Part shown: positions 5,404 to 26,180 of the stretch, piece by piece
How positions within the stretch are numbered: the stretch's first letter is position 1
Layout of the letters: the number at the start of each line of letters is the position of its first letter
From: Candidatus Methanophagaceae archaeon GoMg2
GTDB lineage: Archaea; Halobacteriota; Syntropharchaeia; Alkanophagales; Methanospirareceae
Reading direction: 5' to 3'
Length of the DNA stretch: 32,000 nucleotides
Assembly: GCA_013180585.1 (NCBI GenBank)
Contig: QBUM01000250.1
Span: forward strand, 1 to 32,000
The notes under the pieces: model-generated
What the model saw: only the letters and a program-made list of their open reading frames with translations
The model's database searches: none
What the model was told of the DNA's origin: nothing
Translations under genes and position numbers: made by a program

Positions 5404-5646
5404 TAACCACAAGATTTTCACGAGAAACCTTTTCTTTGAACAGCTTTGCTGTTCCATTGCTTTACCTACAACTTTTTTACCTCGGTAAAAACCTTGACTA
5501 AAAACCTTCTATTGTTTTTCTTTTAGCACAAACCTTTCTTAAAAAGAAAGCTTTACCAAAGAAACAATGGTTTTCTTTTTCTAAAAAAGAAAAAGTGTTG
5601 TGTTAATCTCGTGAAATCTCGTGGTTTTACCCCTGCTATACAAATA
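5404..5646 (-). mobile_element. Family-A MITE-like element, long variant (A7)
   Basis: Ends are taaccacaagattttcacgagaa ... cttgtgttaatctcgtgaaatctcgtggttttacccctgctatacaaata. These match family-A termini; the internal ~180 bp is unrelated to other copies. Confidence 0.5.
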
Positions 5647-8389: not shown

Positions 8390-10345
8390 ATGGAGACGGG
8401 GGAAATTTTTATAGTTTTAGCTTGCTTCTTACTGCTATCCGATTTTATTCTGTTGTTAATGGCAAAGCAAGAAGGGAGTAAGAAACGTGACCTCGCTTTT
8501 ATCGCTTCTGCCATCGCTTGCGTGCTGATAGTAGCCTCTTACTTCCGGCTCACAATGGCGTTCGTGAATGATAATTTTTGGATAAGTGAAGTTTACACGT
8601 ACAGTTCATCGGGCTTGTCGCTCATGTATAAGGTGGGCGACCCCTGGATAGGGAGTAGCGGGTCAATGCTCTTTATAATTTTCGTCTTTGCACTTGTATA
8701 TTTTACGTATCGGTTTAAAGGATTGGGAAAAGAGAGCGAGTTCCGTACAACTACCTACAAAATATTGGACGTCTTCCTCATCTTCCTCCTTCTCGTCACC
8801 CTTCTGAAGAGCCCTTTTGAACTTCTACCCGTGAATCCCCCGGATGGGGGGGGTCTAAATCCGTTGCTACAAACGTTATGGGTGCTTATTCATCCGCCTG
8901 TGGTCTTTTTGGGCTACGTATTTGTCTTCTTCGCATTCGCGCTGACGCTGGCGGGGATGATAACAAGGGAAAGCGAAAGGCAAGAAGTAAGAGCGACCTT
9001 AAAACGTTTCTTGTACACGGCATGGCTGTTCTTAGCACTTGGAATTGCGCTTGGTGGTTGGTGGTCTTATGAAGTACTGGGTTGGGGTGGATACTGGGCT
9101 TGGGACCCGGTGGAGACGGCGTCCTTACTTCCCTGGCTTGCTCTCACCGCGTACTTTCACCTGCCGGTAAGAAGCAAAGATTTGGCGAAGGAATTCACGC
9201 TCATGATTACGTTTTTCATGATTATCTTCGCCTCCGCTCTGACGCGAGGGGGGCTATTGGAATCGGTTCATGCGTTTGGGGAATCCCCAGTCGGGCCAGC
9301 ACTTATGTTATTCGCTTTTGGCGTCTTTTTATACTTCGTATATCTTGCGAAAAAAGCGAAAAAACCGCTTTATGCTTTTGAGATTGATTCTTCTTCACTT
9401 CACTCTGTCTCTATCTTTGTCGCTTACTGGTCGCTGATGATTCTGTTAATCATATGCTTTTTGGGCGATGCCGTGCCGATAATCGGTGGCTTTTTCCGCG
9501 ATGCGTCCATGACCACAAGCGCAGAATTTTATAACCGGTGGTGCTTCCCCTTTACACTCGCATTCGTAGCTGCGTTAATGGGCTGCAATCTCGGTCTGAA
9601 GCTGAAGAATTTTGCCTGGCTAATCACAGTGATATTGGGCATTGGAGTTGTGTTAGCACTGCTTGGACTACCCACGCCAAATCCACTTGCAAACTTCGGG
9701 CTCCCGCTCCTACTCACGGCGGGGTTTGCTATCGCGCATAGTTTTGTGCGTTCATTACAAAAGAAACAGCAATCATCACACGTGTTGGGCAAAACCCTCG
9801 TGCATCTCTCCGTCATAATTATCTTAATAGGCGTATTTATCAGCGCCACCGCGGAAACGGACAGTGGCAACATTCTCGCAAAACCCAACTCTGTTATTGA
9901 TACGCAGGGCGTGAAGATAGAATTAAATGATTTCGCAGTACACCCTGGTATAGGTAGCGTTTACCCCAGGACAGGGCATTTATTCACAGTCCCGGAATAT
10001 TCCGCTCTGAAAATGGACGCTACTATAGAGGATGGCGGGCGTGTCCATAATGAAATCCTGGAGCTGTACTACTATGCAAACTGGGGTGTGGTGTCCGAGC
10101 CTTTGATTATTACCTCTCTGTCCGGCGACATATACGTGTTCATGCAACATACAAACTCCAGTTATAGTTCCTTACGTTACGCCCTTATGGGCGGGATAGT
10201 TCAGCCAGAAGATTTTATCATCAATGTGAAGCGGGTCCCCCTGATATGGCTTGTTTGGCTGGGGATAATATTACAGGGATTGGGTATGACTATATTACTA
10301 TACGGTGAACTCAGGAAAACAGGAGCGAACTACAGCAAAAAATAA
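8390..10345 (+). CDS. ccmF: Cytochrome c maturation haem lyase CcmF
   Basis: 651 aa and polytopic. ALGGWWSYEVLGWGGYWAWDPVETASLLPWL is the CcmF-type WWD haem-handling motif. Confidence 0.85.
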   Translation: METGEIFIVLACFLLLSDFILLLMAKQEGSKKRDLAFIASAIACVLIVASYFRLTMAFVNDNFWISEVYTYSSSGLSLMYKVGDPWIGSSGSMLFIIFVFALVYFTYRFKGLGKESEFRTTTYKILDVFLIFLLLVTLLKSPFELLPVNPPDGGGLNPLLQTLWVLIHPPVVFLGYVFVFFAFALTLAGMITRESERQEVRATLKRFLYTAWLFLALGIALGGWWSYEVLGWGGYWAWDPVETASLLPWLALTAYFHLPVRSKDLAKEFTLMITFFMIIFASALTRGGLLESVHAFGESPVGPALMLFAFGVFLYFVYLAKKAKKPLYAFEIDSSSLHSVSIFVAYWSLMILLIICFLGDAVPIIGGFFRDASMTTSAEFYNRWCFPFTLAFVAALMGCNLGLKLKNFAWLITVILGIGVVLALLGLPTPNPLANFGLPLLLTAGFAIAHSFVRSLQKKQQSSHVLGKTLVHLSVIIILIGVFISATAETDSGNILAKPNSVIDTQGVKIELNDFAVHPGIGSVYPRTGHLFTVPEYSALKMDATIEDGGRVHNEILELYYYANWGVVSEPLIITSLSGDIYVFMQHTNSSYSSLRYALMGGIVQPEDFIINVKRVPLIWLVWLGIILQGLGMTILLYGELRKTGANYSKK

Positions 10346-12017: not shown

Positions 12018-12178
12018 TTGTATTTGTATAGCAGGGGTAAAACCACGAGATTCCACGAGATTAGCACAAGATTTTTGGGGTTAACATGGGATAAAAAAAA
12101 CAATAATGGACTTAAGCAGGATCCCAAGTATTATCTTCTCGTGGAAATCTGTGTAATCTGTGGTTAGCTAAACAAATA
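12018..12178 (+). mobile_element. Family-A MITE-like element, alpha subtype (A1)
   Basis: ttgtatttgtatagcaggggtaaaaccacgagattccacgagattagcacaaga ... tcttctcgtggaaatctgtgtaatctgtggttagctaaacaaat. Near-identical copy at 17576-17736. Confidence 0.65.
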
Positions 12179-13288: not shown

Positions 13289-14215
13289 CTACACCCGCTC
13301 CAACCATCTCATATATCGCTCTTCTTTCGCATTCACGATGTCAAAGAACTTCCTTTGTATCGCACCTGTCACTTCGCCCCTCTTGCCTATCCCTATTATT
13401 ACATTGTCTATCTCTCGTATCGGCGACACTTCTGCTGCGGTGCCCGTGAAAAAAACTTCATCGGCTGATAATAACTCCTCCTTCTTTATGCTTTTCTCTA
13501 CCACTTCATACCCCATATCACGTGCGAGCTCGATTACGGACGCCCTGGTGATGCCAGGAAGAATAGAAGATTCTATCGCAGGTGTGTATAGAGTTGCGTT
13601 TTTTACTGCGAATATATTCTCGCCCGGACCTTCCGCTACGTAGCCTTTATTGTCGAGCAATATCGCCTCGTCAACTCCCTGTTCCTTAGCTTCATGTACT
13701 GCTAACATCGAATTCAGATAATGCCCCGTAGCTTTTGCCGTGACGGGCAATGTATTGGGGTCTATCCTTCGCCATGATGAGAATGCACATCTTATACCGT
13801 TCTCCAACGCATCATCGCCAAGATAAGCGCCCCAACGCCATGCTGCAACTGCACAATCCACAGGACAGCCCGCAGGGTTCACGCCTAAATGATGGAACCC
13901 ATAGAAAGCGATTGGCCTTATGTAGCACGCATCAAGTCCGTTTATACGAACCGTCCCTTTTATAGCTTCTGTCAGCTCTTCCTTCGAGTAAGGGATTTCC
14001 ATCTTGTACAACTCCGCTGACCGATACATCCTATCCACATGTTCCTTCAGCCGGAAGATAAACGAACCTTTGGCCGTGGCATAGCATCTTATCCCCTCAA
14101 AAACACCCGACCCGTAATGCAAACCATGCGCGAGCACGTGTACTGTGGCTTCTTCCCAATCCACAAATTTGCCGTTATACCATATTTTTCCCGATTCTGG
14201 TAGTCGCTCCACCAT
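13289..14215 (-). CDS. ilvE: Branched-chain amino acid aminotransferase
   Basis: MVERLPESGKIWYNGKFVDWEEATVHVLAHGLHYGSGVFEGIRCY...EGPGENIF...TPAIESSILPGITR. The track ORF extends to a TTG at 14236; the ATG at 14215 is preferred. Confidence 0.85.
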   Translation of the reverse strand: MVERLPESGKIWYNGKFVDWEEATVHVLAHGLHYGSGVFEGIRCYATAKGSFIFRLKEHVDRMYRSAELYKMEIPYSKEELTEAIKGTVRINGLDACYIRPIAFYGFHHLGVNPAGCPVDCAVAAWRWGAYLGDDALENGIRCAFSSWRRIDPNTLPVTAKATGHYLNSMLAVHEAKEQGVDEAILLDNKGYVAEGPGENIFAVKNATLYTPAIESSILPGITRASVIELARDMGYEVVEKSIKKEELLSADEVFFTGTAAEVSPIREIDNVIIGIGKRGEVTGAIQRKFFDIVNAKEERYMRWLERV

Positions 14216-14263
14216 TTTTATCGCCTCTGAAAGCAATGTCTTAATAAATTCTACATGTTTCTA

Positions 14264-14275
14264 TTTAAAAATATA
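14264..14275. promoter_or_regulatory. AT-rich TATA-like box in the ilvE / DUF357 divergent intergenic region
   Basis: tttaaaaatata is centred ~25 nt upstream of the ATG at 14295, implying a leaderless or very short leader. It is near-palindromic, so it could serve both directions. Confidence 0.35.
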
Positions 14276-14294
14276 GGTCTTTCCAACCCACGAA

Positions 14295-14525
14295 ATGAAC
14301 GAAGCGGAACGGATAAAAAAGGACATTGCTCTTTTCGATAAGAGCATAACAGAACTGAGCGCTTTATCGCTCGAAGGCAAGGAGGAAGAAGTGGTAGAAC
14401 TTGCCAAGGGATACTTTGAGGATACGAAATATTATCTTGATAAGGGCGATTACTTCACGGCCTTTGGTTGTATAAACTATGCTCACGGGTTATTAGATGC
14501 GATAAGACGCAATAAAGAAGAATAG
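14295..14525 (+). CDS. DUF357-family small archaeal protein
   Basis: 76 aa. [33 protein letters not shown] matches the remembered DUF357 pattern (Y..D..Y.l..GD...A....YA.G.LDA). Confidence 0.55.
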
Positions 14526-14539
14526 GTGACTGCCCTCTT

Positions 14540-15094
14540 CTATTTTTTCCCTACGCTGCGGAATGAGACAGCTATTACAAACCATATAATAAACGGCACC
14601 GCTATGCCTACAATCCCTATTGAAGCATAAACCATCGCTGCAAACTTTGAATGGTCTATATACATAGGAAAGCGTACCAGAATATCTGTGACATGCAGAA
14701 GAAATAGAATCGGGACGCCTATTGCAAGTATTTCAAGTCTCTTCTTCAGTATCAGCTTCGGCGTTGCTATCGCCAATGCGAACAACGGAACTAAATTAAA
14801 ATTCACAAGATAAGCTTTTCCTAAGTTAAGAGCAGCGATTTGCTCTTTTGTATAACCCATAAGAAGTGGAAAAGGTTTTGAAAACGCAAAGACCGCACTT
14901 TGATAAAATTCACCAAGGTAAAACTTCCACCATACAATTAGAAGCGCCGCGGCGACAACCAGGAACTCCAGCAAGAAGATCAAAATTTGATTCTTAGTTA
15001 AATTTAAAATATCGCATTTACCATTTGCCGGCGGCTTTTCATCTGCTTTCACTTCTTTCTTTCCCCCAGTTCCCCTGCGCTTATCCTTCGCCAT
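14540..15094 (-). CDS. Cys-less paralogue of the adjacent archaeosortase-like protein
   Basis: Overlaps the upstream gene by 14 nt. It has the same basic N-tail and TM layout, and AIATPKLILKKRLEILAIGVPILFLLHVTDILVRF aligns to the paralogue core. NLV occupies the position of ECT. Confidence 0.55.
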   Translation of the reverse strand: MAKDKRRGTGGKKEVKADEKPPANGKCDILNLTKNQILIFLLEFLVVAAALLIVWWKFYLGEFYQSAVFAFSKPFPLLMGYTKEQIAALNLGKAYLVNFNLVPLFALAIATPKLILKKRLEILAIGVPILFLLHVTDILVRFPMYIDHSKFAAMVYASIGIVGIAVPFIIWFVIAVSFRSVGKK

Positions 15095-15701
15095 CTGCCA
15101 CCACCACCTTCAGCCATATCAGAAAGAGCACTACCACGAATATGATAAAAGAAGCCTGCCACAGATACACGTGCATAAACTCAAACATCTCGGGATTGTG
15201 CATGCCAACAAGAGCCAGTACGAAAATACGAAGGAGGTTTATTGCATAGAGGCTGGGTACGCCGAAGAGGATACCCAGACCTTTCTGCTTTGGCGTTGCG
15301 GGATATGCTAATACACAGGAGCTATACACGATGGACGAGAAAACTGCGGTACATTCGTCTATTATCTCCATCGAGAAGCCATTGATTGTTAACACGTCGC
15401 CCCTCACAACTACGTCCAGCCCCACCAAAGAGAAGATAGCACCTAAAATTAATGCGGTGACGTGCCTCACATGCACCATTATCCCCGAGCCGCTAACTGT
15501 TATAGCGTAATAAACCATATAAAACGCGAAACAAAAAGCTAAGAAAAGAGCCACGTACTTTATTGCCTCCCCGTTCTCTTTTACTATTTCCAATATGGGG
15601 GTTAATATACCTTTTTTAGCAGGGGTTTTATCGTTAACGCTATGCGCCACATTCTTCTTGCTCTGCGTTCTTCCTCCTTTCCCCTTTTTTCGGGCCGTCA
15701 T
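15081..15701 (-). CDS. Small archaeosortase/exosortase-family protein
   Basis: 206 aa and polytopic. It carries the ordered Cys (MEIIDECTAVFSS), Arg (YAINLLRIFVLAL) and His (FEFMHVYLW) signature and sits directly downstream of a protein with a tripartite C-terminal sorting tail. Confidence 0.6.
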   Translation of the reverse strand: MTARKKGKGGRTQSKKNVAHSVNDKTPAKKGILTPILEIVKENGEAIKYVALFLAFCFAFYMVYYAITVSGSGIMVHVRHVTALILGAIFSLVGLDVVVRGDVLTINGFSMEIIDECTAVFSSIVYSSCVLAYPATPKQKGLGILFGVPSLYAINLLRIFVLALVGMHNPEMFEFMHVYLWQASFIIFVVVLFLIWLKVVVADGEG

Positions 15702-15791
15702 AAATGCAAAGAAAGAGAGAGAGTTGAAAAACGTTTAACTATTCCAACTTATTTTACAGTGCGAGAATAAAAACAAAAAGGGAAGACGGCC

Positions 15792-17435
15792 TTATCTACG
15801 TCTTCCTATCATACCTCTTATTGCAACCAGACTCAGCAGTCCAATCAAAGCTGCGATACCTACCGGCATAAGCACTGGTAGCTCTGGAACCCCTCTGATC
15901 TTTGTTATCGCCGACCGATCTATAGGCTCTGTCTCATCGGTAGTCAGGATAGCGGTATTGTTTATGACTGTTCCAGCAGGCACAAAAGCATTTATTTTGG
16001 CTTTAAACGTTGCATCTCCGCCTACTCCGGATGCCAACGTGCCTATATCCCATATCAGCGTGTTATTCACAGGATAATAGGTTCCCGCGTCATCATCCGC
16101 TGCGTCGGTTAGATCAACGCCGTTTAAGCCCATGCTTTCTGATATGTAAGTGGTGTTCGCTGGTATCGTATCATGTATCGTAGCGTTCGTAAGCGTTCCG
16201 GCTCCGATATTGTTATAGTGTATCCGGTAACTGAGCGTGTCATTGGAAGAAGCAAAGCTCTTATCAACCGTCTTATACGCAGATAGTTCAAAACTCGGTA
16301 ACACTAAAACCGTCGTATTCACAGAGGCGTTTTTCGGTTCTGTTTCATTTGTGTCTATCGTGGCGGTATTGGTTATTAACGTATTATTTGTGAGATAATC
16401 GTGAACCGTTACATCGAACGATTGCGTTCCCTCTGCTCCAATCAACAAGTTGCCTATGTTCCAGACGATTCTGCCCACATCTACTTTTCCACCACCGGAT
16501 ATGCTTCCATCAACTAAAGTGGTATCTGTGGGAATCGGGTCGGTTAAAATGACTTCTGTAAGGTCTTCGTTATCATCGTTCCTATAGGTTATTGTATAGC
16601 TTAGCACGTCACTACAGTTGCATGTTGGTTTACTGACGTTCTTAGTGATGCTGACATGTGGTTTTAATTCCCTTTGCATCTTCTCTTTTATTGCTTCAGG
16701 GAAAGCCTCCCAATTTGGAGCTTCCATGTAAAACCCGGAATGATTAGCTGGTTTTAGCGAATAATTCAACTTAACCAAGAATTCACGGTTATATGGCTGC
16801 GCGGGTGGGTGAGCTTCATCAATGACATCAACACCGAGAACGTTCACTTCGTCAAAATAGCCTTTAAATATCGCATCATCCCTCGCTTCATATGTTGCAT
16901 CTACGGCCGGTTGGTATTCTTCCCTATTTCCACCACATATCCAATTTGGTCGCCCATCTGTTGATATATCTATTATTTGCCTAACATTCGGAGAGGTATT
17001 TCCTCTTGTGACGTAATCCGTTAAGGTTTCGTTCGCTAATGTGAATGCTCTTGGCATTGGGGTATGATCCCCGGGCTGCGGCATAGCCAATATGGTGTCA
17101 GCGATGGAATCGGCAACGGTCTGGTTTGTGATTGTTGTAAGGGGCACTTCCACATTAGCGTAATATGGTGGGGAACGTGGCCCCTTAATACGGTTAGGGG
17201 GGAAATACCCAAACATGATTACACAAACTGAGATATCACCATTTTGTGGAGTTACCGATGAGTTTGATATAGCATCAGCGTATCCGTTCAATTGTATAGA
17301 ATAGTTCGCAGGGCTAATGCTATTGGACCCATCCAGTATCAAGAACAAATCCACCTTTTCCGCTGCGCTCACTCCTGTCAATGCAAAAGCAGAAATCACT
17401 AAAATCGCTGCAATAAATATTCCTCTTCCTTTCAT
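15792..17435 (-). CDS. Surface glycoprotein: signal peptide, vWA (MIDAS) domain, 2 DUF11 repeats, non-PGF C-terminal sorting signal
   Basis: Signal MKGRGIFIAAILVISAFALTGVSAAE; vWA motifs LILDGSNS and IIDISTDG; DUF11-like SYTITYRNDDNEDLTEVILTDPIP and SYRIHYNNIGAGTLTNATIHDTIP; about 18 N-x-S/T sequons; tail GVPELPVLMPVGIAALIGLLSLVAIRGMIGRRR. Confidence 0.8.
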   Translation of the reverse strand: MKGRGIFIAAILVISAFALTGVSAAEKVDLFLILDGSNSISPANYSIQLNGYADAISNSSVTPQNGDISVCVIMFGYFPPNRIKGPRSPPYYANVEVPLTTITNQTVADSIADTILAMPQPGDHTPMPRAFTLANETLTDYVTRGNTSPNVRQIIDISTDGRPNWICGGNREEYQPAVDATYEARDDAIFKGYFDEVNVLGVDVIDEAHPPAQPYNREFLVKLNYSLKPANHSGFYMEAPNWEAFPEAIKEKMQRELKPHVSITKNVSKPTCNCSDVLSYTITYRNDDNEDLTEVILTDPIPTDTTLVDGSISGGGKVDVGRIVWNIGNLLIGAEGTQSFDVTVHDYLTNNTLITNTATIDTNETEPKNASVNTTVLVLPSFELSAYKTVDKSFASSNDTLSYRIHYNNIGAGTLTNATIHDTIPANTTYISESMGLNGVDLTDAADDDAGTYYPVNNTLIWDIGTLASGVGGDATFKAKINAFVPAGTVINNTAILTTDETEPIDRSAITKIRGVPELPVLMPVGIAALIGLLSLVAIRGMIGRRR

Positions 17436-17575
17436 TTCATCCTCCTTTTTCTGTGTTGTTTCTATATGGTAATAACAGGTTGTTTTATCCCATTATATGC
17501 TTTTCGGGTACATTTCCGGTGGAGATAGCAGGTGTTGGCAAAACAGGTGCGGAACTAGTAAAAATGAATTATAAT

Positions 17576-17736
17576 TTGTATTTGTATAGCTAGGGGTAAA
17601 ACCACGAGATTTCACGAGATTAGCACAAGATTTTGGGGGTTAACATGGGATAAAAAAGCCAATAGTGCACTTAAGCCGGATCCAGAGTATTATCTTCTCG
17701 TGGAAATCTGTGTAATCGGCGGTTAGCTAAGCAAAC
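17576..17736 (+). mobile_element. Family-A MITE-like element, alpha subtype (A2)
   Basis: Collinear with 12018-12178 with few mismatches (..ggggtaaaaccacgagatttcacgagattagcacaaga...ggttagctaagcaaaca). Confidence 0.65.
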
Positions 17737-17823
17737 ACCATGATTTTAATGTCTAAAAACGAGGGAAACGTCCTTTAGTTACTCTTTCTTTTCTAAAGAA
17801 GCGCGTGATTTAAAAAAAGGTAA

Positions 17824-17983
17824 TTGTTTAGCTAACCACAAGATTACACAGATTTTCACGAGAATAGAAGGGCAGTAACCAGATTTTAGTATACCATAGA
17901 CCACATTATCCCACCGTAATCCCTATTTCTTGTGTTAATCTTGTGGAATCTCGTGGTTTTAAAAATTCGCTATACAAATACAA
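17824..17983 (-). mobile_element. Family-A MITE-like element, beta subtype (A3)
   Basis: ttgtttagctaaccacaagattacacagattttcacgagaatagaagg...cttgtgttaatcttgtggaatctcgtggttttaaaaattcgctatacaaatac. About 90% identical by eye to the reverse complement of 26023-26180. Confidence 0.65.
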
Positions 17984-18014
17984 AAAAAGAAAAAAAGAAA
18001 ATTGGTTATTCGTT

Positions 18015-18740
18015 TCAGCCCTTCCTTCTCCACCGCACTAAATACGCGACTGCGATTACCCCCGCAATAAAGAAAACGGCTTCAAATCCAGGGGTTGACG
18101 GCTTTGTCGTTGTACTTGGCGTTGGCTCTAGTGTTTCTGTAGGGGTTGTTGTCGGTGTTGGCGTTGCCTCATGTGTAGCCTCGGGACTCGCTGTTGGTGT
18201 AATTGTCTCATTTACCGCTGCTGGTGTAGCCGTTGCATTTGATGATGCTTCTACTTCGCTACTTTCGCTCGCTACGCCATTGCCTGAAATTGTTGCTGTT
18301 ACTACGGTTCTAGGTTCCACAAAAGTTACCTCCGTTAAATTCCATCCGCCACTACGACACCTTACGTGAATCCCTGCAACTCCCGTTTCATTTCCCGATA
18401 GTAGCGCGATTGCTGTGCCATTGTCATCTGTGATTACGTTAATACTGGAGCCGGTATTGCTTTCATTTCCCGCATCGGTAAGCCAAGCAGATGCCCCCTC
18501 CATTATAGACATAATCACCGTCTCATTCTCCGCAGGTTCACCACTATGTTCAGTTTCTTCCGGCCACCGAACCACCACTTTTATCTCTGACGTGGAATTG
18601 CCATCGGCAGGTATTTCAGCGGGATTCGCACTAATTGTCACCCAGTCACTCGCTCTGTCCGCTCCCGTCCCCTGCGCCCCTGCAAGAGCAGGAAGTGCAA
18701 ATAAAACTACTGCTAAAATTGCCCATATTCTTATTGTCAT
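18015..18740 (-). CDS. PGF-CTERM-anchored surface protein with an Ig-like (Big_1-type) domain and a Thr/Pro linker
   Basis: Signal MTIRIWAILAVVLFALPALAGA; WVTISANPAEIPADGNSTSEIKVVV; linker TPTPTTTPTETLEPTPSTTTKPST; terminal PGFEAVFFIAGVIAVAYLVRWRRKG. Confidence 0.85.
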   Translation of the reverse strand: MTIRIWAILAVVLFALPALAGAQGTGADRASDWVTISANPAEIPADGNSTSEIKVVVRWPEETEHSGEPAENETVIMSIMEGASAWLTDAGNESNTGSSINVITDDNGTAIALLSGNETGVAGIHVRCRSGGWNLTEVTFVEPRTVVTATISGNGVASESSEVEASSNATATPAAVNETITPTASPEATHEATPTPTTTPTETLEPTPSTTTKPSTPGFEAVFFIAGVIAVAYLVRWRRKG

Positions 18741-18815
18741 CTTTTATAATACCTCCTATTTAACTGTTCACAACGCAAAATAAAAATCTTTCGCTTTTTA
18801 TCTAATCCTTCTTAT

Positions 18816-18856
18816 AAAAAAAATAAAGAAGGAGGGATAAGGTTTTATCCTTATCC
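18816..18856 (-). terminator. Hairpin plus oligo-T terminator candidate after the 1553-aa gene
   Basis: On the minus strand, ggataagg-ataaaa-ccttatcc (perfect 8-bp stem) lies ~26 nt after the stop and is followed by ctccttctttatttttttt. Confidence 0.5.
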
Positions 18857-18881
18857 ACCTACACTAAAGTTTGTCGTTTGT

Positions 18882-21800
18882 TTACGATACTTTGTATGTC
18901 CAGTATGCTTTTCCGGGTTCGAGTTCTTCGCCTGGTGGTCCTGGTATCAACGACATGAAGTCGTATGGATATGGGTATCCGTTCCTGTATTTCAGAATCA
19001 CTGCACTTAGCGGTATATCCTTACCATCCATGCGTAAACTCTCGTTGCCTATACCTATCAGGTTCCAGCCCGTACCTGAATTGTCGTAAATCTCTTGCCA
19101 CGTTAGTGATACACCAGTTCCGTATACTGTAATCTCCTTCGGCGCCCATGGGTTGTACACGTAGTAGCCCTTGCCACCCTCTACTTCACTTGCTTCTGAC
19201 CAGCCCGTTGTTGCATTATAGCTCCATACTTCCACGTCACGACCGAAGATAGCTTCCGTGTTTTTATTGTCTGGTATTACTGGCAGTGATACGTAGTTCT
19301 GTCCCACATCAAGCGGGACGATGAATGGTTTTTTTCCCGGCTCAAATATGGGTATCTCTGGGTCCTTGTTCATGTAGATGCCTGTGCCATCCTCTGGGTT
19401 GTACGTGAATGCGAACCTATCTCTCGCCGGGTATGACTGACCACGGTTCAGGTCGCCTTTTGCATTCGGTGCAAAGAACGAAGTCGTGATTATGTAACAT
19501 CCCGGTTGTGCATTGTTCACCATATCAAACCGTATATCAGGCTCGAATGTGAGCTGATATTCGCCGCCCACGTAAACCTCTGGGTTCAACGAAGGTATCT
19601 CAGGCAGTAGGAATCTGGTGTACTCGTCTGGTATCGTCTGTATATCGAACTTAGTCCATGACTCGATAAGACCACTCTCGTTCAGTATCTCTAGCAAGTT
19701 AGTCGAATATCTCGGCTCTGGCTTTTCATCTTTCCAGCAGAACTCCAACGGATCCAGATCCTCTATGATTCGCTCGTCAACGTCGTTTGCAATCCAGTGT
19801 TCGGTGTCAAAGACCGTGAATCTACCAGGCAGCGGCATTGGTATTCCGCATTCGCAACACTGCCAGCCATTTGGCACTGCTACATTTACGTCTCCCGGAT
19901 AGAACGGACCTCCATAGTCACTCCATAACTGCCAATCTGATGGTATACTTGTAGTCATATCTCCGTCTGTATCAATCGGCACTGCACGGAAGAATCTCAA
20001 CCATGCTGCCGGTGGATACTGCATTGTCAGGTAGCGTTCTCCACATGGGAAGTACTCTGTACCTGCTTTTCCGGTATCTCTATCGCCATAAGGCCACTTG
20101 TCCAGTAGTTTCAATGGTTGCCACAGTACCACATCGGTATCGTCCACGAGTTCGTGATCCATGTTCATCGGTGGAAGCACTGGTAGTGCCAATAGCGGAT
20201 AGCAAGGTTTAACTTTCGTGAGCCATTGCGAGTCTGCACATGGCAGATAATGTTGTCTCAGTGTGTATTCGCCATCGTCAAGATACTTCGGAAGTGGTGT
20301 TCTCAATGTTATGTACTTGAACTTCTCACAATCATATCTGTTCCCATCGTTGTCCAGAACCTCTATTGCAGGTATCTCGTATCGCACTCCGTCCACGTAG
20401 AAGATGTCTCCTCTCTGTAATTCTTTACCCACTGTGATCAGTGCCTTATCTCCAGAAAATCGTCCTTCGTAGTTAGCATACCATGTTCTATCTGGATGCT
20501 TTTTTGTTGTTTCGAAACTATGTCTATCGAAGTACTTTCTTTCATTAGTTTTCAAATAGTTTTGTACACCATCTTCTGGTTCGGAATTACCGTAGTACGA
20601 TATGAACACCATCGGATAGCTATCAGATATGTCATATCCATCGAATAGCAGACTGTGGTCAAGGAATTGCACTTCATCGCCTTCCTCCATGATGTACGTC
20701 TTCTCTATACTTATTGTTCCGTTTGTTGTTTTCGGTAGTAACCCGTCCATGTCCGATGGGTCGCAAGATATGTTTGCGAGTCTTACAAGGTTAGTCCTTT
20801 TAGACTCGGCACCTGGGTTCTCAAAAGAATCAAGTCCTATCTGATCCGTTGTTGGATCTGATACGATTGGGAATGGGAACCAACTGCCTACATCTGCATG
20901 ATGTGGTTTCTTGTCCTGCGAATCAATAAGCATATAAGTTGTCTCGATAACTATTGCTGGTGCTAACCCAATCATCTCATGCCAGCCATAGAACTCGTAC
21001 TCGGGCACATACCATACTCTTAAGTACTCCTTCAGGTCACTGTTTTCATCCTGTGCATTTGTTGGATACTCTGGGCTGTGTCGTAGTATCGCTGCATCAA
21101 AGGTGATCGAATCCTTTCTTATCGCAGTCGGATTGAAAGGCTCTTCCCAGCTCACGTATTGCTCGATATTGCAGCTATTGTTAATTCCAAACGTGCTATC
21201 ACTACCATTACCGTATATCTTCACTGTGCCTTTCTTTAGCTCTTCATCATAGTACACATAGATGTCATTACCGTCCTCTCCGTCCTTCTGATCGTATGAG
21301 AACGCGACTCTCTGTTCAGTGGGATCTCCACCTCTTTTGTTGTCGTACAAATCTCCTGTTGCTTGCGGTGCAATCCACGAAGTCGTGATGATGTAATCAC
21401 CATCAAGTTCGACCGGCCAGCCACCATCTCTAGGTATTGTATAATAGTCTGGTAGTTCAGGTAGCACGAACATTGTGTACTGGTCTGGTAGAGACTGAAC
21501 ATCGAATTTCGTCCATGACTCTGTTATTAGTCCTCCTGCCTCTTCTCTTATCTTCTCTATGGTTTTATCCACGATGATCTCAGAATTTTCTGCAAATATG
21601 TAGAAACCTGGTGGAATATTCCATGGTTGTGGGTTTGCCAAGCTCTTCAAAAAGTCTTCATCAATCGAGTCCGCAGATTCTCCTAGCCCGAAAACGTTTA
21701 TTACATCAAGTCCCGCATCCAATGAAGCATTTCTCGCTTCCATCGTTGCATCAGCATCTCCGCTTGGTATGCCTCCATCACTGGATATATCAAGTATTTG

Positions 21801-23543
21801 CAGTCTTGCACTGGCATCTGGATTTTCTTCTATGAGTGTTTTTATTTTGTCGAATGCTGCAATCATGTTGGTGCCGCCATCTATTGCGTCCATCGCCCGT
21901 ATCTGTGTCGCAACACTGTTGACTGTGTCAGGTGTTATTGTAGTAAGTGGTACTTCTACCTTGGCAACGTCCGAAAACTGAATCACACACACAGAGACAG
22001 TGCCATCCTGAGGTATTTCGTATATCGCCGAAGCTAAACCTTCTTTCTGCAAATCAAAGTATCCGTGCATAGCCAGGTTTTGTGATGAATCAACAACAAG
22101 GAATAAATCCTTTTGCTCTTTACCTTTCCAGTCTTCTCGCAGCTTCTCCAGTAAATTCGTTGAATATCGCTCTTCTACTTGCTCTTCGATGTATATAACC
22201 TCTAATGGGTCTATGTTATCAATTACTCGCATCTCAACATCGTATGCGATCCAATCGCCCTCGCTGTCTGTAAGTTCTGTACCATCATAATCCTGCCTTG
22301 TCCAGTCTCTTTCTTCTGTAGCATCTGTCCACAACGGTATGTCTATGTCATCAACCATGTCATGGTTCATGTTAAACGGCGGAAGCAGCGGTATTAACTC
22401 TGATTGCGCGATACACTCTATAAACTGTGTAGATACTATGCTCTCATCACGAACAGAATCATCGCCCTTCGGCAGCTTCGTCCTCAGCGTTAGGAACTTG
22501 AAAGCATCCGCTTCACCATCTAGCGGTTGTAATGTATCAAGCACTGCGACTGCCGTTACATCGTATCTTACTGCATCAACGTAGAACACATCGCCCCAGT
22601 TTAGCTCCTTACCGACGTAGATAAGAGGTCCATCCCGGCGTACATACCATGTCCTCATCGGAGTTGTTGTGTCTTCACCGTGATTCGGACTGGGATGCTC
22701 ATTGTTATGACGGTCAAAGTATATTGTTTGTTGAGGACCTATACTGATCCAGCCTTTTTCTGCATCGTCCAGTTTATTTCCTGTATACCCCACTTTTATA
22801 ACGTAGTCATCAGTTTCTTCATTGACCGTGGTGAGTTCCACATAGTGATCGAAGAACCGCACAGTAGATCCTACAACCGGAGTAAATTGCTTCTCGAGAG
22901 TAATGTTTCCCTTTACAGTTGTACCGTCTGGATCTACAATTCCACTAACACTTGCAAGCGTGGTTATGTTGTCAACATTTGTTCCGCTCTTCCATGCACC
23001 GAGTCCCGTCTGTGTATCAATCTCACATGTTGGTACTAAAAATTGTGTCTTTGGTGCTGTGCCCGTTATTGGTAGATACAAAGTGTCCATCAGCATGTAA
23101 GTGTATTCCATGTTTATCGTGGGATGTGTGTCATTCTTTCTCGGACCATTGTACTGACCACAGGGCTCGTACCATGACCTCAAGAATATCTTCTCACGGG
23201 CGTTCTCTGGACTGCCGATCGCATTACCTACTAATACACGATAATACGGTTCCCCTTCTTCGTGGCTCTCTTCAATAATCGCTGGATTGTACGTGATCGA
23301 ATCTTTTGGTATTACTGTCGGGTCAAATGGGTCTTCAAAATTGATATATCGCTCTGGTGCATTCCCATGTGGTTGCACGTCACCGTATATCCTTACCGAA
23401 GAAGCAGGTTCTTCCTCTGGAGGAAACCCCCCATTCGTTCCTGCCATACTGGTAGGCGCGACCATAGCAAATATCGAAGCGACCATTATCGCCGCCATTG
23501 CTATCCCTACTATCACTTTTCCTTCTCTTACTTTTGTTTTCAT
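18882..23543 (-). CDS. Giant secreted protein (1553 aa): two tandem copies of an uncharacterised ~650-aa module, a vWA domain inserted in copy 1, and a distinct C-terminal beta-rich domain
   Basis: Single uninterrupted track ORF; signal peptide MKTKVREGKVIVGIAMAAIMVASIFAMVAPTSMAG; SD aggagg. The internal duplication and vWA motifs are detailed in the findings. Confidence 0.9.
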   Translation of the reverse strand: MKTKVREGKVIVGIAMAAIMVASIFAMVAPTSMAGTNGGFPPEEEPASSVRIYGDVQPHGNAPERYINFEDPFDPTVIPKDSITYNPAIIEESHEEGEPYYRVLVGNAIGSPENAREKIFLRSWYEPCGQYNGPRKNDTHPTINMEYTYMLMDTLYLPITGTAPKTQFLVPTCEIDTQTGLGAWKSGTNVDNITTLASVSGIVDPDGTTVKGNITLEKQFTPVVGSTVRFFDHYVELTTVNEETDDYVIKVGYTGNKLDDAEKGWISIGPQQTIYFDRHNNEHPSPNHGEDTTTPMRTWYVRRDGPLIYVGKELNWGDVFYVDAVRYDVTAVAVLDTLQPLDGEADAFKFLTLRTKLPKGDDSVRDESIVSTQFIECIAQSELIPLLPPFNMNHDMVDDIDIPLWTDATEERDWTRQDYDGTELTDSEGDWIAYDVEMRVIDNIDPLEVIYIEEQVEERYSTNLLEKLREDWKGKEQKDLFLVVDSSQNLAMHGYFDLQKEGLASAIYEIPQDGTVSVCVIQFSDVAKVEVPLTTITPDTVNSVATQIRAMDAIDGGTNMIAAFDKIKTLIEENPDASARLQILDISSDGGIPSGDADATMEARNASLDAGLDVINVFGLGESADSIDEDFLKSLANPQPWNIPPGFYIFAENSEIIVDKTIEKIREEAGGLITESWTKFDVQSLPDQYTMFVLPELPDYYTIPRDGGWPVELDGDYIITTSWIAPQATGDLYDNKRGGDPTEQRVAFSYDQKDGEDGNDIYVYYDEELKKGTVKIYGNGSDSTFGINNSCNIEQYVSWEEPFNPTAIRKDSITFDAAILRHSPEYPTNAQDENSDLKEYLRVWYVPEYEFYGWHEMIGLAPAIVIETTYMLIDSQDKKPHHADVGSWFPFPIVSDPTTDQIGLDSFENPGAESKRTNLVRLANISCDPSDMDGLLPKTTNGTISIEKTYIMEEGDEVQFLDHSLLFDGYDISDSYPMVFISYYGNSEPEDGVQNYLKTNERKYFDRHSFETTKKHPDRTWYANYEGRFSGDKALITVGKELQRGDIFYVDGVRYEIPAIEVLDNDGNRYDCEKFKYITLRTPLPKYLDDGEYTLRQHYLPCADSQWLTKVKPCYPLLALPVLPPMNMDHELVDDTDVVLWQPLKLLDKWPYGDRDTGKAGTEYFPCGERYLTMQYPPAAWLRFFRAVPIDTDGDMTTSIPSDWQLWSDYGGPFYPGDVNVAVPNGWQCCECGIPMPLPGRFTVFDTEHWIANDVDERIIEDLDPLEFCWKDEKPEPRYSTNLLEILNESGLIESWTKFDIQTIPDEYTRFLLPEIPSLNPEVYVGGEYQLTFEPDIRFDMVNNAQPGCYIITTSFFAPNAKGDLNRGQSYPARDRFAFTYNPEDGTGIYMNKDPEIPIFEPGKKPFIVPLDVGQNYVSLPVIPDNKNTEAIFGRDVEVWSYNATTGWSEASEVEGGKGYYVYNPWAPKEITVYGTGVSLTWQEIYDNSGTGWNLIGIGNESLRMDGKDIPLSAVILKYRNGYPYPYDFMSLIPGPPGEELEPGKAYWTYKVS

Positions 23544-23586
23544 GTTCTTTTTATTTACCTCCTGTGATACAGGTGGGAAGTTTGAG

Positions 23587-23595
23587 TATATAAAA
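23587..23595 (-). promoter_or_regulatory. TATA-box candidate for the 1553-aa gene
   Basis: The minus strand reads gcttttatatactc about 45 nt upstream of the ATG. SD aggagg lies at 23558-23563. Confidence 0.4.
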
Positions 23596-23740
23596 GCATA
23601 TGTCGAAAACAGGTGTATTTCTCCTCTGCCTGATCAACATTTAAATAGGGTACATTTCGTGTCGAGAAAATGTGGCCAAATGTGTGGAGGGGAAATGCAG
23701 GGGAAGCTGGGGAAAAGTGGGGATACTCTAACAAATGGTA

Positions 23741-23818
23741 GTTGTATAGCAGGGGTAAATAAACCACGCGATTCCACGAGAATCACACAAGGATTTTTGG
23801 GGTTAACCAGGGATTAAA
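23741..23818 (+). mobile_element. Family-A element, alpha subtype, left half only (A4)
   Basis: gttgtatagcaggggtaaataaaccacgcgattccacgagaatcacacaaggatttttggggttaaccagggatt aligns to the first ~80 bp of A1 and A2, then homology stops. Confidence 0.55.
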
Positions 23819-24009
23819 CCGTAACTTCGACCATTTTTAGGAATATGTTTTTGTGTGATGGTTTTAGATGTCTTTTTTCGTGTATTCATTGCTTTTCCTT
23901 ACTTATCCTTATTTGTGTGGATATTACTAATTTTGGTAATATGAAAGGTGGGAACAATAAAAAACGAAAAACGCAGAAGTACCCCCAAAATCAAAAAAAC
24001 TACGGGAAA

Positions 24010-24064
24010 AACTAGAACACAAACTAACTGAAGAACCTATTACGAAAAGAGGTTAAAGTTACAG
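24010..24064. repeat. Family-B repeat, copy 2
   Basis: The same 55-bp string as window positions 1-55. Confidence 0.8.
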
Positions 24065-24110
24065 ATTAAAGAGTCAATAAAGTGCTTACGCCTGAAATAT
24101 TTTATTGCCT

Positions 24111-24238
24111 TTCCACGAGAATAGAAGGACAGTAACCAGATTTTAGTATACCATCGGTCACATTACCCCACATTAATCCCAATTTCTTGTGTTAATCTTG
24201 TGGAATCTCGTGGTTTTAAAAATTCGCTATACAAATAC
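24111..24238 (-). mobile_element. Family-A element, beta subtype, lacking its distal terminus (A5)
   Basis: ccacgagaatagaaggacagtaaccagattttagtatacc...cttgtgttaatcttgtggaatctcgtggttttaaaaattcgctatacaaatac. Collinear with 17855-17983. Confidence 0.6.
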
Positions 24239-24419
24239 ATTGTGGTTAACCAAACAAGCGCAAAAAAAATTAATAGCTACTCTTCCCTTCTTCAGGTGCC
24301 CTTGCGTGAAGCATTTTAGAGTATATACAGCAATCCGGATTTACCCTTGCTCCTATTCTTTCGTTGTAATCGCAAAATACAATATGCTATTTTTGCTTCG
24401 GGTTGGCATAGTTGATCCT

Positions 24420-25010
24420 TTAAGTTCTCTTCACCATCATCGTCAAATTCAAGTCTTTTTCCAGTATCTTCTCGTATTTACCTTTTATATGCGGCTTTAT
24501 CTTCTCCAAATCCCATATCCCCATGATTATCTCGCCAACCAACTCGCCATCGTCAAATAATCTTACCACGCCCTCACTCTCTGATACCACAATAGCCACG
24601 GCGTTTGTTTCTTTCGAGATAGAAGCGGCAGCCATGTGTCTGCTGCCAAACCCCATTGGAAGGTCTATATCATGGGAACCAGCTTCTATGTACCTCGCTG
24701 CGGAAAGAACATAGCCATCGGCACTGATGACAAATGCACCGTCCAGTTTCGACAGTTCGTTTAAAGTTCCCTGAACGTTTGCATTCCTTATATCCTTCAT
24801 CGCTTTTGGGTAATTTGCAAGTGGATCTAAGATTAAGGGTTTGGATTTCTTCAATACCGCTTCCTCGTCACCGACCACAAATAGTGCGCCTACCCGCCCC
24901 CTCTCTACACTGTGTCGCGCTATTCCCACCGCTATTTCTATCACCGTCTCTAACACTTCGGGGTCACAGTTCCTCCCCTCTTCACAGATTATGCCTGCTA
25001 TTTCTCTCAT
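24420..25010 (-). CDS. Diadenylate cyclase (DisA_N/DAC domain) protein
   Basis: GALFVVGDEE...LDGAFVISADGYVLSAARYI...GFGSRHMAAASISKETNAVAIVVSESEGVVRLFDDGELV contains the DGA and RHxAA DAC motifs. It is 196 aa with only a short N-terminal extension. Confidence 0.75.
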   Translation of the reverse strand: MREIAGIICEEGRNCDPEVLETVIEIAVGIARHSVERGRVGALFVVGDEEAVLKKSKPLILDPLANYPKAMKDIRNANVQGTLNELSKLDGAFVISADGYVLSAARYIEAGSHDIDLPMGFGSRHMAAASISKETNAVAIVVSESEGVVRLFDDGELVGEIIMGIWDLEKIKPHIKGKYEKILEKDLNLTMMVKRT

Positions 25011-25064
25011 ATACTAAAAATATAATCTCTCATTTGTTTATTAAATCGTAGAGGATAGCAAGAA

Positions 25065-25982
25065 ATGATAAATCCTGAGTCTTTTAGCACCGCGCCTCAT
25101 TTTGAGAAACGGATTGTGAAGGCATATTCGCCCTCGCACATCACGGGCTTCTTTATGATATGCGATAACAGAAATCCGTTGTATAAAGGCAGTGTTGGCG
25201 GTGGCATCGTATTAGATGCGGGTTGCCTGTCTGAAGTTTCTCTCAATGCCCCTCTGGAGGCAAGAACAGAGCTAAGAATAAACGGTGTAGAAACAGAGGA
25301 GGCGGATACCACTAAATACGTTGTTGATAGTATGATAGGGAAATGTGAGCAGGAGGTTAATGTAACAGTGTCAGCGAACTTTGAAGTTCCGGTAGGCTGT
25401 GGCTTTGGGGCAAGTGGTGCGGGTGCGCTCAGCACTGCCTGTGCACTAAACAAGTTGTTGTCGCTTAATATGACGTTTAGCGAAGTAGCGCAAATAGCAC
25501 ATCTCGCAGAAGTGGAGAACGGTACAGGCTTAGGTGATGTAATTGCTGAAGCATACGGCGGAGTGGTGATAAGAAGAAAGCCAGGTCCGCCGGGAATAGG
25601 TGTGATTGAGAAGATACCAAGTCCTGATGCAGAAGAAAAAATAAGCTCTGTTACATTCGGAACGAAATCAACAAAAGCGGTTTTAGCGGATGATTCCCTG
25701 AAGCGTAGGATAAACGAAGCAGGTAAGGCCGCACTGAAAGAGCTGATGAAAAAACTGAATTTAGATAATTTCATGCGGGTATCAAGGGATTTCTCATTAC
25801 GAAGCGGCGTAATAAGTGATAAATGTCGGGATGCGATAGAGGCGGTGGATGCGGAAGGTAAGGTTGCCAGTGTAGCGATGTTGGGAGAAACGGTTTTTGT
25901 CGTTGGCGATAGTGAAGCATTGAATGAGTTCGGAGAAGTAAAAGAAAGTAGAATATCGGATGTAGGTGCCAGGATTATTTAG
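25065..25982 (+). CDS. Pantoate kinase (archaeal CoA pathway, GHMP superfamily)
   Basis: AYSPSHITGFF; the GHMP motif VPVGCGFGASGAGALSTA; LGDVIAEAYGG. Size and pattern fit the COG1829 archaeal pantoate kinase. Confidence 0.7.
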   Translation: MINPESFSTAPHFEKRIVKAYSPSHITGFFMICDNRNPLYKGSVGGGIVLDAGCLSEVSLNAPLEARTELRINGVETEEADTTKYVVDSMIGKCEQEVNVTVSANFEVPVGCGFGASGAGALSTACALNKLLSLNMTFSEVAQIAHLAEVENGTGLGDVIAEAYGGVVIRRKPGPPGIGVIEKIPSPDAEEKISSVTFGTKSTKAVLADDSLKRRINEAGKAALKELMKKLNLDNFMRVSRDFSLRSGVISDKCRDAIEAVDAEGKVASVAMLGETVFVVGDSEALNEFGEVKESRISDVGARII

Positions 25983-26022: not shown

Positions 26023-26180
26023 GTATTTGTATAGCGAATTTTCAAAACCACGAGATTCCACAAGATTAACACAAGAAATTGGGATTAATGATCGATAATG
26101 TGGTCTATGGTATACTAAAATCGGGTTACTGCCCTTCTATTCTCGTGAAAATCAGTAAAATCTTGTGGTTAGCTAAACAA
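26023..26180 (+). mobile_element. Family-A MITE-like element, beta subtype (A6); overlaps the pheT stop codon
   Basis: gtatttgtatagcgaattttcaaaaccacgagattccacaagattaacacaaga...ttctcgtgaaaatcagtaaaatcttgtggttagctaaacaa. Confidence 0.65.

Follow-up and report, generated by a model that had tools for sequence, protein, structure and literature searches.

The 32,000-nucleotide stretch of contig QBUM01000250.1 (assembly GCA_013180585.1) from Candidatus Methanophagaceae archaeon GoMg2, referred to here as the window, encodes on its reverse strand a giant secreted protein of 1553 residues. The gene was taken from a list of open reading frames, and its accession and organism, a member of the anaerobic methanotrophic archaea of group 1 (ANME-1), were assigned by exact-sequence look-up (Table 1). 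The evidence fully supports an ancient tandem duplication of an undescribed module in this protein, with a von Willebrand factor A (vWA) domain inserted in the first copy and a separate domain, termed Cdom, at the C-terminus. With a probability of roughly 55%, the giant protein is secreted, held at the cell surface in trans, and built as a two-module structural scaffold that exposes an exchangeable, metal-dependent vWA site. As a kind of object, archaeal surface or adhesion proteins that contain vWA domains are familiar. The module, Cdom, the hairpin that serves as a hot spot for insertion and the pairing with a gene for a PGF-CTERM protein are undescribed as far as the present searches show.

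A duplicated module and its inserted vWA domain

The duplication is evident when the two halves of the protein are compared. BLASTP of residues 1–771 against residues 772–1553 gave three collinear segments, which pair residues 64–420 with 794–1156 (E 8e-38, 32% identity), 431–470 with 1250–1289 (E 4e-10, 58% identity), and 652–769 with 1273–1397 (E 3e-16, 39% identity). In one comparison, collinear E-values of this size lie far outside what chance would give, and the tandem duplication of a large module is therefore real.

Confident AlphaFold models were obtained for residues 772–1553 (pLDDT 82.4, pTM 0.75) and residues 36–771 (pLDDT 85.7, pTM 0.70), from alignments that contained 67 and 74 homologues. 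Each module, of about 500–620 residues, is modelled as nearly all beta, with a domain A of about 360 residues that contains very long hairpins, a variable linker, and a domain B of about 140 residues. Module 2 has as its linker a variable, cysteine-rich insert of about 110 residues, WQPLKLLDKWPYGD...CCECGIPMPLP. A separate all-beta domain is modelled for the last 158 residues, with pLDDT of about 85–93.

Residues 478–668 are the only region of the giant protein with family database matches. In Pfam, residues 479–640 match VWA_2 (32.5 bits, cutoff 27), VWA (30.5 bits, cutoff 23.8) and DUF1194 (28.9 bits, cutoff 27). This region is modelled as an alpha/beta domain with pLDDT above 90, and Foldseek matches it to TRAP, complement C2a, integrin I-domains and the anthrax-receptor vWA domain (E 4.5e-10 to 1e-7, target TM-score up to 0.79). 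The domain lies between the strings RYSTNLLEKL and ESWTKFD and caps a beta-hairpin in module 1. In module 2 the corresponding strands, RYSTNLLEIL and ESWTKFDIQT, follow each other directly (strands 510–519 and 522–530 of the model of residues 772–1553), and in module 1 the equivalent two strands lead into the first strand of the vWA domain and out of its last helix.

An original prediction, made from the DNA letters and their translations, had read two tandem modules, a vWA domain inserted in a loop of the first, and a separate beta-rich domain at the end of the protein. These readings are borne out by the quantitative self-comparison, by the Pfam and Foldseek matches together with the modelled hairpin, and by AlphaFold and a hidden Markov model (HMM) of Cdom, respectively. 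The search for orthologues with and without the insert that had been proposed along with them yielded a pair at about 84% identity. The homologues P0010 (1588 residues) and P0012 (1363 residues) are 83–85% identical from end to end and differ solely in a vWA cassette of about 195 residues, whose boundaries fall exactly between RYSTDLLEKLHE.L and E.WTKFDIQ. This natural pair, one member with and the other without the cassette, proves that the vWA domain is an insertion.

The prediction had also described the insert as a domain with a metal ion-dependent adhesion site (MIDAS). The vWA fold stands, with one correction to the motif. Aligned by motif, the giant protein has DSSQN (DxSxN rather than DxSxS), T558 and D589; it keeps the canonical residue at four of the five positions and has Asn in place of the third Ser. 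The DSSQN-T-D combination is also found in P0001–P0007, and P0008–P0010 have canonical DGSQS or DGSGS with all five positions.

Two groups of the 94 first-round homologues have a vWA domain at the hairpin position, namely the closest ANME-1 clade (P0001–P0010 and P0013) and a distant clade (P0066, P0069–P0073, P0076, P0077, P0081 and P0082). P0066 has three modules, two of which carry vWA inserts. All-against-all BLAST of the vWA domains groups the ANME-1 insert with the C-terminal vWA domain of P0088 and with that of a 547-residue protein encoded nearby in the window. Of the free-standing vWA domains, the latter, a paralogue, is most closely related to the insert (34% identity, E 2e-19). The insert is closer to such free-standing and C-terminal domains than to the inserts of the distant clade, which belong to other vWA subfamilies, and a single origin of all inserts is rejected. 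Since different vWA subfamilies are found in one hairpin, this hairpin has been used at least twice. Moreover, the vWA domain diverges faster than its host module among orthologues (for example, 60% versus 75–86% in P0003). The P0010/P0012 pair, the differing subfamilies and the faster divergence together suggest that the vWA domain is an exchangeable display cassette.

A parallel is offered by the integrin alpha I-domain, which lies between beta-propeller blades, and by pilus tip adhesins, where a vWA domain likewise interrupts a loop of a host domain that is rigid and beta-rich. The insert resembles the integrin I-domain in its adjacent N- and C-termini, its MIDAS-type residues and its fold match (E about 1e-8), but its host domain is unrelated and its motif is DxSxN instead of DxSxS. 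The insert also passes the cutoff of DUF1194 (PF06707). In DUF1194-type proteins, however, the vWA domain is free-standing or N-terminal, while in the giant protein it is an internal cassette inside another module.

The C-terminal domain and the partner gene

The N-terminus of the giant protein, MKTKVREGKVIVGIAMAAIMVASIFAMVAPTSMA followed by GTNGG, reads in translation as a Sec-type signal peptide, with cleavage predicted between the two strings. After removal of the first 34 residues, the mature protein has a mass of 172 kDa, an isoelectric point of 4.3 and 11 N-x-S/T sequons. Its C-terminus, ...LEPGKAYWTYKVS, has no hydrophobic tail in the translation, and neither the translation nor Pfam gave a match to a PGF-CTERM signal (PGF motif, transmembrane helix, basic tail). 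A Sec-type signal without a transmembrane or PGF-type tail is what the original prediction had stated. No dockerin (PF00404) was matched by Pfam in the 1553-residue protein. In the wider family, the module or its domain A was found only alongside extracellular domains, cohesin and Big included. On account of the signal peptide, the lack of a hydrophobic C-terminal tail, the acidity, the sequons and these exclusively extracellular domain partners, we infer a surface location.

How a protein without its own anchor may be held at the surface is suggested by the next gene, which encodes a secreted 241-residue immunoglobulin (Ig)-like protein. This partner has a signal peptide, 8 sequons and a Pfam match to PGF-CTERM (27.9 bits, cutoff 18.8), and it matches Invasin_D3 and Big_1 below their cutoffs. 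Partners of this type, with about 240–333 residues, an Ig-like region, a Thr/Pro linker and PGF-CTERM, are paired with the giant gene at 8 of the approximately 13 loci with readable downstream DNA. The partner gene lies directly 3′ of the giant gene at seven of them (L001, L002, L005, L008, L009, L014 and L016) and one gene further at L012. Loci with both genes span 32–89% identity.

Cdom has no match in Pfam, and a search with Cdom alone against an index of 5.8 billion proteins returned just two fragments of orthologues. With the Cdom HMM, 74 fetched family members were positive, most of them at the extreme C-terminus and a few in a subterminal position. The HMM was also positive for a 2415-residue PKD/CLIPPER protein (L004 623–7870), an 807-residue Big/CARDB protein (L008 9859–12282) and a 315-residue protein (L012 4671–5618). 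Cdom terminates unrelated PKD, Big and CARDB surface proteins as well.

The relatives in Methanolobus have a different arrangement of the same parts. Dockerins are found in P0075, P0076 and P0085–P0091, and cohesin genes flank P0089. At every Methanolobus locus examined, a protein with two cohesins and a Cdom is encoded immediately 3′ of the dockerin-type homologue. In Methanolobus sp. WCC4, the order is a cohesin protein that ends in a PGF-type membrane tail, a two-module protein ending in dockerin, the protein with two cohesins and Cdom, and a small C-tail-anchored protein. Thus, in Methanolobus the dockerin takes the place of Cdom on the two-module protein, and Cdom sits on the neighbouring cohesin adaptor. 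That Cdom is fused in ANME-1 and linked through dockerin and cohesin in Methanolobus is the main argument for the proposal that Cdom is an envelope attachment module. From gene position, the Ig-like PGF-CTERM partner is its likely receptor.

Cohesin-dockerin systems have been described for ANME genomes (PMC9012536, PMC5244752). The logic of such archaeal cellulosome-type display, in which an adaptor joins the displayed protein to its anchor, is shared by Methanolobus and other relatives of the giant protein. Unlike these systems, the ANME-1 giant protein has no dockerin and carries the beta-sandwich directly.

We further infer anchoring in trans through Cdom and adhesion through the vWA domain, and the whole can be pictured as follows. 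The giant protein would be a secreted, acidic, probably glycosylated 172-kDa protein of the ANME-1 cell surface without an anchor of its own. Its body would consist of two rigid beta-rich modules, each made of domain A and domain B and behaving as a conserved tandem pair. Cdom would attach the protein, in the ANME-1 lineage most likely to the Ig-like, lipid-anchored PGF-CTERM product of the next gene, and in Methanolobus this job would be split between the dockerin of the two-module protein and the cohesin adaptor that bears Cdom. The vWA domain on the hairpin tip of module 1, comparable to an integrin I-domain on its propeller, would offer a metal-ion-dependent site for an external ligand, for instance part of the matrix, a second surface protein or a partner cell.

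Relatives of the module and the S-layer comparison

Searches of Pfam and NCBIfam with the whole protein at E 1 returned vWA families only and nothing for the module, and 23 module sequences gave no match in these databases even at E 10. The module was likewise unmatched among PDB sequences, queried with the single protein and with a family profile, and Foldseek searches of the module models against the PDB and BFVD gave nothing below E 1e-3. The best fold match in the PDB, a weak one, is 3u2g, a DUF1608 surface-layer (S-layer) domain from Methanosarcina (Foldseek E 9e-3, TM-score 0.24). Membership in DUF1608 (PF07752, TIGR01567) was rejected. The DUF1608 HMMs match neither the giant protein nor its modules, and hhalign of the module alignment (A3) with a DUF1608 alignment (A4) gave a probability of 0.3% (E 0.21). 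The latter alignment consisted of proteins recovered with published Mbar_A1758 peptides as seed (PMC3361143 supplement). The earlier statement that the module falls outside DUF1608 and other known families therefore holds across Pfam, NCBIfam, the PDB, Foldseek and hhalign. In the BFVD, the model of residues 772–1553 matches ORF23 of His1 virus, a putative transmembrane protein of 148 residues, over about 100 residues (Foldseek probability 1.00, rmsd 3.7 Å, target TM-score 0.43), yet with E 0.19. A literature search for the locus tag, the accession and vWA proteins of this kind found nothing, and the tag, the accession and the term "von Willebrand" are absent from the supplements of PMC9012536, a comparative-genomics study of ANME.

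The family itself is small. A profile of the 23 modules found 334 proteins at E ≤ 1e-3 among 1.84 billion cluster representatives, 211 of them at E ≤ 1e-30, and nearly all full-length members have two modules. A taxonomic scan, which was pattern-limited and covered one genome per species, gave positives in Methanophagales (ANME-1), Ca. Methanoxibalbensis, ANME-2, ANME-3, other Methanosarcinales, Thermoplasmatota and a few bacterial metagenome-assembled genomes (MAGs). Many Methanolobus species are among the positives, and strain ZRKC3 has three copies. In a candidate division WOR-3 MAG (L014) and a Desulfobacteria MAG (L016), the two-module gene is followed by a PGF-CTERM gene, and L016 also has an archaeosortase-like gene. 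Because PGF-CTERM and archaeosortase genes are archaeal hallmarks, these two contigs are probably misbinned archaeal DNA.

The two modules of one protein are often closer to each other than to the equivalent modules of other proteins. Their identity is 58–64% in P0020, P0034, P0068, P0085 and P0089, compared to about 31–36% in the giant protein. This suggests that the two-module state has been maintained by repeated duplication or gene conversion; it would have been re-created repeatedly or homogenised, and selected in either case.

A conserved tandem pair on an acidic, secreted protein recalls an S-layer, and the giant protein might be the main lattice-forming S-layer protein of ANME-1 and its relatives. 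It would then form an anchorless canopy on a small PGF-CTERM stalk, as SlaA does on SlaB, with the tandem modules in the role of the Methanosarcina DUF1608 pair. ANME-1 genomes have no recognisable S-layer domains and no known S-layer protein (PMC5244752, PMC9012536). One survey took the absence of known domains to mean that ANME-1 make no S-layer (PMC5244752), and a later one left the question open (PMC9012536). The conserved pair of a large and a small gene, the tandem, acidic and sequon-rich character of the protein, and the top fold match, weak as it is, all agree with a lattice. So does the region ahead of the giant gene, where comparison with the archaeal promoter consensus gives a putative, consensus-like TATA box and, 13 nt ahead of the ATG, a strong putative Shine-Dalgarno sequence.

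The comparison with known S-layer proteins is nevertheless mixed. MA0829 and Mbar_A1758 of Methanosarcina (PDB 3u2g, 3u2h) are likewise secreted, acidic surface glycoproteins with a tandem beta-rich module, and both families occur in Methanosarcinales-related lineages. The DUF1608 architecture comprises a tandem pair, a linker and a C-terminal membrane anchor; of these, the giant protein has the tandem pair and lacks the hydrophobic C-terminal segment. MA0829 is held by its own C-terminal transmembrane helix, while the giant protein is anchorless and ends in a separate beta-sandwich. In addition, the DUF1608 module is much smaller (about 270 residues), and DUF1608 proteins have no vWA insert. 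SlaA of the Sulfolobales is likewise a large anchorless outer protein (about 1400–1550 residues) encoded beside a small membrane-bound partner, SlaB, and a gene arrangement of this type is found in the window and at 8 related loci. SlaB, however, is a coiled-coil stalk with a transmembrane helix, whereas the partner here is Ig-like with a PGF-CTERM lipid anchor. A search for SlaA/SlaB homology found none among PDB sequences and none below E 1e-3 among PDB folds.

Several observations make a lattice-forming role unlikely. Both the hhalign probability and the TM-score to 3u2g given above are low. Methanolobus genomes hold up to three dockerin-type homologues each, flanked by cohesin genes, which suggests accessory proteins. 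In other families, a dockerin protein encoded beside cohesin genes marks a displayed accessory protein. Moreover, other surface proteins also carry Cdom, which would be expected of an attachment module of general use, and only about five Methanophagales species representatives were recovered in the pattern-limited scan. Methanosarcinaceae have been reported to carry DUF1608 S-layer genes (PMC3361143).

A broader version of the lattice idea is speculative and should be held at least as doubtful. It envisages a two-component ANME-1 lattice of new fold, composed of a large canopy subunit and an Ig-like PGF-CTERM stalk, with lineage-specific vWA cassettes on an exposed hairpin that would make metal-dependent contacts to syntrophic bacteria, matrix or extracellular cytochromes, and with the module reused in Methanolobus as an accessory layer displayed through cohesin and dockerin. 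If this reading is true, ANME-1 and the alkane-oxidising archaea related to it would have their missing envelope protein in this family.

In some proteins domain A is present without the rest of the module, joined to PKD, lamin-tail (LTD), NosD/beta-helix, dockerin, fn3 and LGFP domains, and in some distant relatives it is fused to metallophosphatase, transglutaminase-core or NlpC/P60 domains. These last fusions, together with several invariant polar residues common to both modules across the family, could point to an extracellular enzyme (a hydrolase, a lyase or a transglutaminase-like protein) of unrecognised catalytic fold, in which the vWA domain and Cdom would serve only to target a substrate or surface. 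This is very improbable. The module matches no enzyme family in sequence or fold, the His residues that might be catalytic, in the QFLDH and RH motifs, are not conserved throughout, and the invariant positions are mostly Gly, Pro or aromatic, as in a scaffold. Furthermore, the catalytic domains of the fusions are separate additions, pointing to domain A as the non-catalytic part.

Neighbouring genes and significance

Four genes follow the giant gene on the same strand in the window. They encode the partner, a secreted 547-residue protein, a small archaeosortase-family protein and a hydrophobic membrane protein of 184 residues (Table 1).

Table 1. Features of the giant gene and its surroundings; positions refer to the window unless a locus is named
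Feature	Position	Strand	Remarks
Secreted two-module protein gene	18882..23543	-	NQE46807.1, "hypothetical protein C5S31_12375", ANME-1 cluster archaeon GoMg2
Signal peptide, aa 1-34	23442..23543	-	Basic n-region, hydrophobic core, SMA/G cleavage-like site
Module 1, first part, aa 48-477	22113..23402	-	Domain A (~360 aa), short linker, first domain-B hairpin strand ending RYSTNLLEKL
Inserted vWA domain, aa 478-668	21540..22112	-	MIDAS-like D485, S487, N489, T558, D589
Module 1, second part, aa 669-771	21231..21539	-	Return strand ESWTKFDVQ and remainder of domain B
Module 2, aa 772-1395	19359..21230	-	Domain A, Cys-rich variable insert, domain B with uninterrupted hairpin; 11 Cys
C-terminal 158-aa beta-sandwich (Cdom), aa 1396-1553	18885..19358	-	Motifs GWSEA..GKGYYVY and GWNLIG..LEPGKAYW
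Putative core promoter and ribosome-binding site	23557..23595	-	TATA-like TTTTATATA (23587-23595), Shine-Dalgarno GGAGGT (23557-23562)
Hairpin GGATAAGG-ATAAAA-CCTTATCC, then T-rich run	18835..18856	-	From terminator-like scan; just past the stop codon of the giant gene
Partner gene, 241-aa secreted Ig-like (Invasin_D3/Big_1-like) glycoprotein	18015..18740	-	Thr/Pro-rich linker, PGF-CTERM lipid-anchor signal
547-aa secreted vWA protein with two DUF11	15792..17435	-	Pfam/NCBIfam; C-terminal VPELPVLMP, transmembrane segment and RRR, sorting-type tail
Small archaeosortase-family protein, 206 aa	15081..15701	-	TIGR04178 60.4 bits (cutoff 23); TIGR04144 108.7 bits (cutoff 150)
184-aa hydrophobic membrane protein	14540..15094	-	No family match; accompanies the archaeosortase-like gene
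Counterparts of the archaeosortase-like and membrane-protein genes	L002 13465-14100, 14155-14748; L016 8136-8759		
Methanolobus protein with two cohesins and Cdom	L007 11611-13092		Motifs PGWNLISIP...LKAYWV; counterparts in L031, L034, L035, L040-L051
33-nt repeat copies	5596-5628, 12039-12071, 17598-17630, 17928-17960, 24185-24217, 26044-26076	both	

The 547-residue protein has an N-terminal vWA domain of the DUF1194 type, with a canonical DGSNS MIDAS motif, and its DUF11 domains are of the isopeptide-forming type. Its gene is also found in the close relative L009 and is absent from L001, L002, L005 and L008. The layout of this protein, whose gene lies directly upstream of an archaeosortase-family gene, is reminiscent of the tip adhesins of Gram-positive pili assembled by sortase.

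ANME-1 cells have been reported to be sheathed (PMC11576556). The giant protein might accordingly belong to the ANME-1 sheath, a plug or a cell-cell connection, or to the tip of an archaeosortase-assembled fibre together with the vWA-DUF11 protein. The isopeptide-type domain and sorting tail of the latter, its position next to an archaeosortase-family gene and the paralogy of the two vWA domains fit this idea. However, SH sheath proteins have a compact amyloid-like core of two six-stranded sheets and were found by a different profile (PMC11576556); the modelled multi-domain module, compared with the published description only, is unlike them. The giant protein also lacks a sorting signal, and the vWA-DUF11 gene is missing from most related loci, whereas these retain the PGF-CTERM partner. 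A role in the sheath or in a fibre is hence very improbable. The original prediction had seen in the giant protein an S-layer-like or sheath-like exoprotein capable of ligand capture. This reading is plausible in the light of the signal peptide, the acidity, the PGF-CTERM pairing and the reported absence of a known ANME-1 S-layer protein. The dockerin-bearing homologues and the shared Cdom speak against a strict S-layer reading, and no link to the SH sheath proteins was seen.

The archaeosortase-like protein is nearest to ArtB, falls below the ArtB cutoff and passes the exosortase/archaeosortase signature model. L002 has equivalents of both this protein (56% identical, in the same relative position) and the 184-residue membrane protein (55% identical, E 1e-52). 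The archaeosortase-like and small membrane protein genes are retained in L002/L003 and L016, where they adjoin the PGF-CTERM partner gene. A published survey reportedly found ANME-1 to have PGF-CTERM proteins yet no archaeosortase A, and for this reason the two proteins may be the missing PGF-CTERM processing enzyme of ANME-1.

The hairpin between the giant gene and the partner gene is a possible terminator or attenuator, a weak assignment because terminator-like sites in the region are no commoner than in the shuffled expectation. A hairpin has also been reported after a Methanosarcina S-layer gene (PMC3361143). Rfam gave no matches over positions 14000–25500. The non-coding stretch 5′ of the giant gene is unusually long (876 nt, 23544–24419) and holds a repeat element. 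The core of this element, the 33-nt motif AAAACCACGAGATTYCACRAGATTARCACAAGA, has six intergenic copies on both strands of the window, where none are expected by chance. Two longer copies of 130 nt (17853–17982 and 24110–24239) are 93% identical, with inverted partial copies nearby, and two repeat copies happen to lie on either side of the giant-partner gene pair. The 130-nt repeat was rejected as a common promoter and as the boundary of a mobile element, since the core is found in six unrelated intergenic regions. For the same reason the element is not considered part of the giant-gene feature, and it looks like a dispersed genomic repeat of the repetitive extragenic palindrome (REP) or miniature inverted-repeat transposable element (MITE) kind. 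Ordinary neighbours in the window include a gene for CcmF-type cytochrome c maturation (8390–10345, forward strand) and one with a diadenylate cyclase (DAC) domain (24420–25010, reverse strand).

In physical association with sulfate-reducing bacteria, ANME-1 archaea use up a large share of the methane in marine sediments. The giant gene and its partner are concrete, testable candidates for components of the ANME-1 envelope and for contact between cells or between cell and matrix. The analysis contributes an undescribed, structurally confident domain family that belongs specifically to the cell surfaces of ANME-1 and its archaeal relatives, and two natural homologues of which only one carries the adhesion cassette. 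It also contributes, through the conserved pairing with a lipid-anchored partner and the argument from domain fusion, an account of how such a large protein may stay on the cell. Relatives are present in cultured Methanolobus species, which makes experiments possible.

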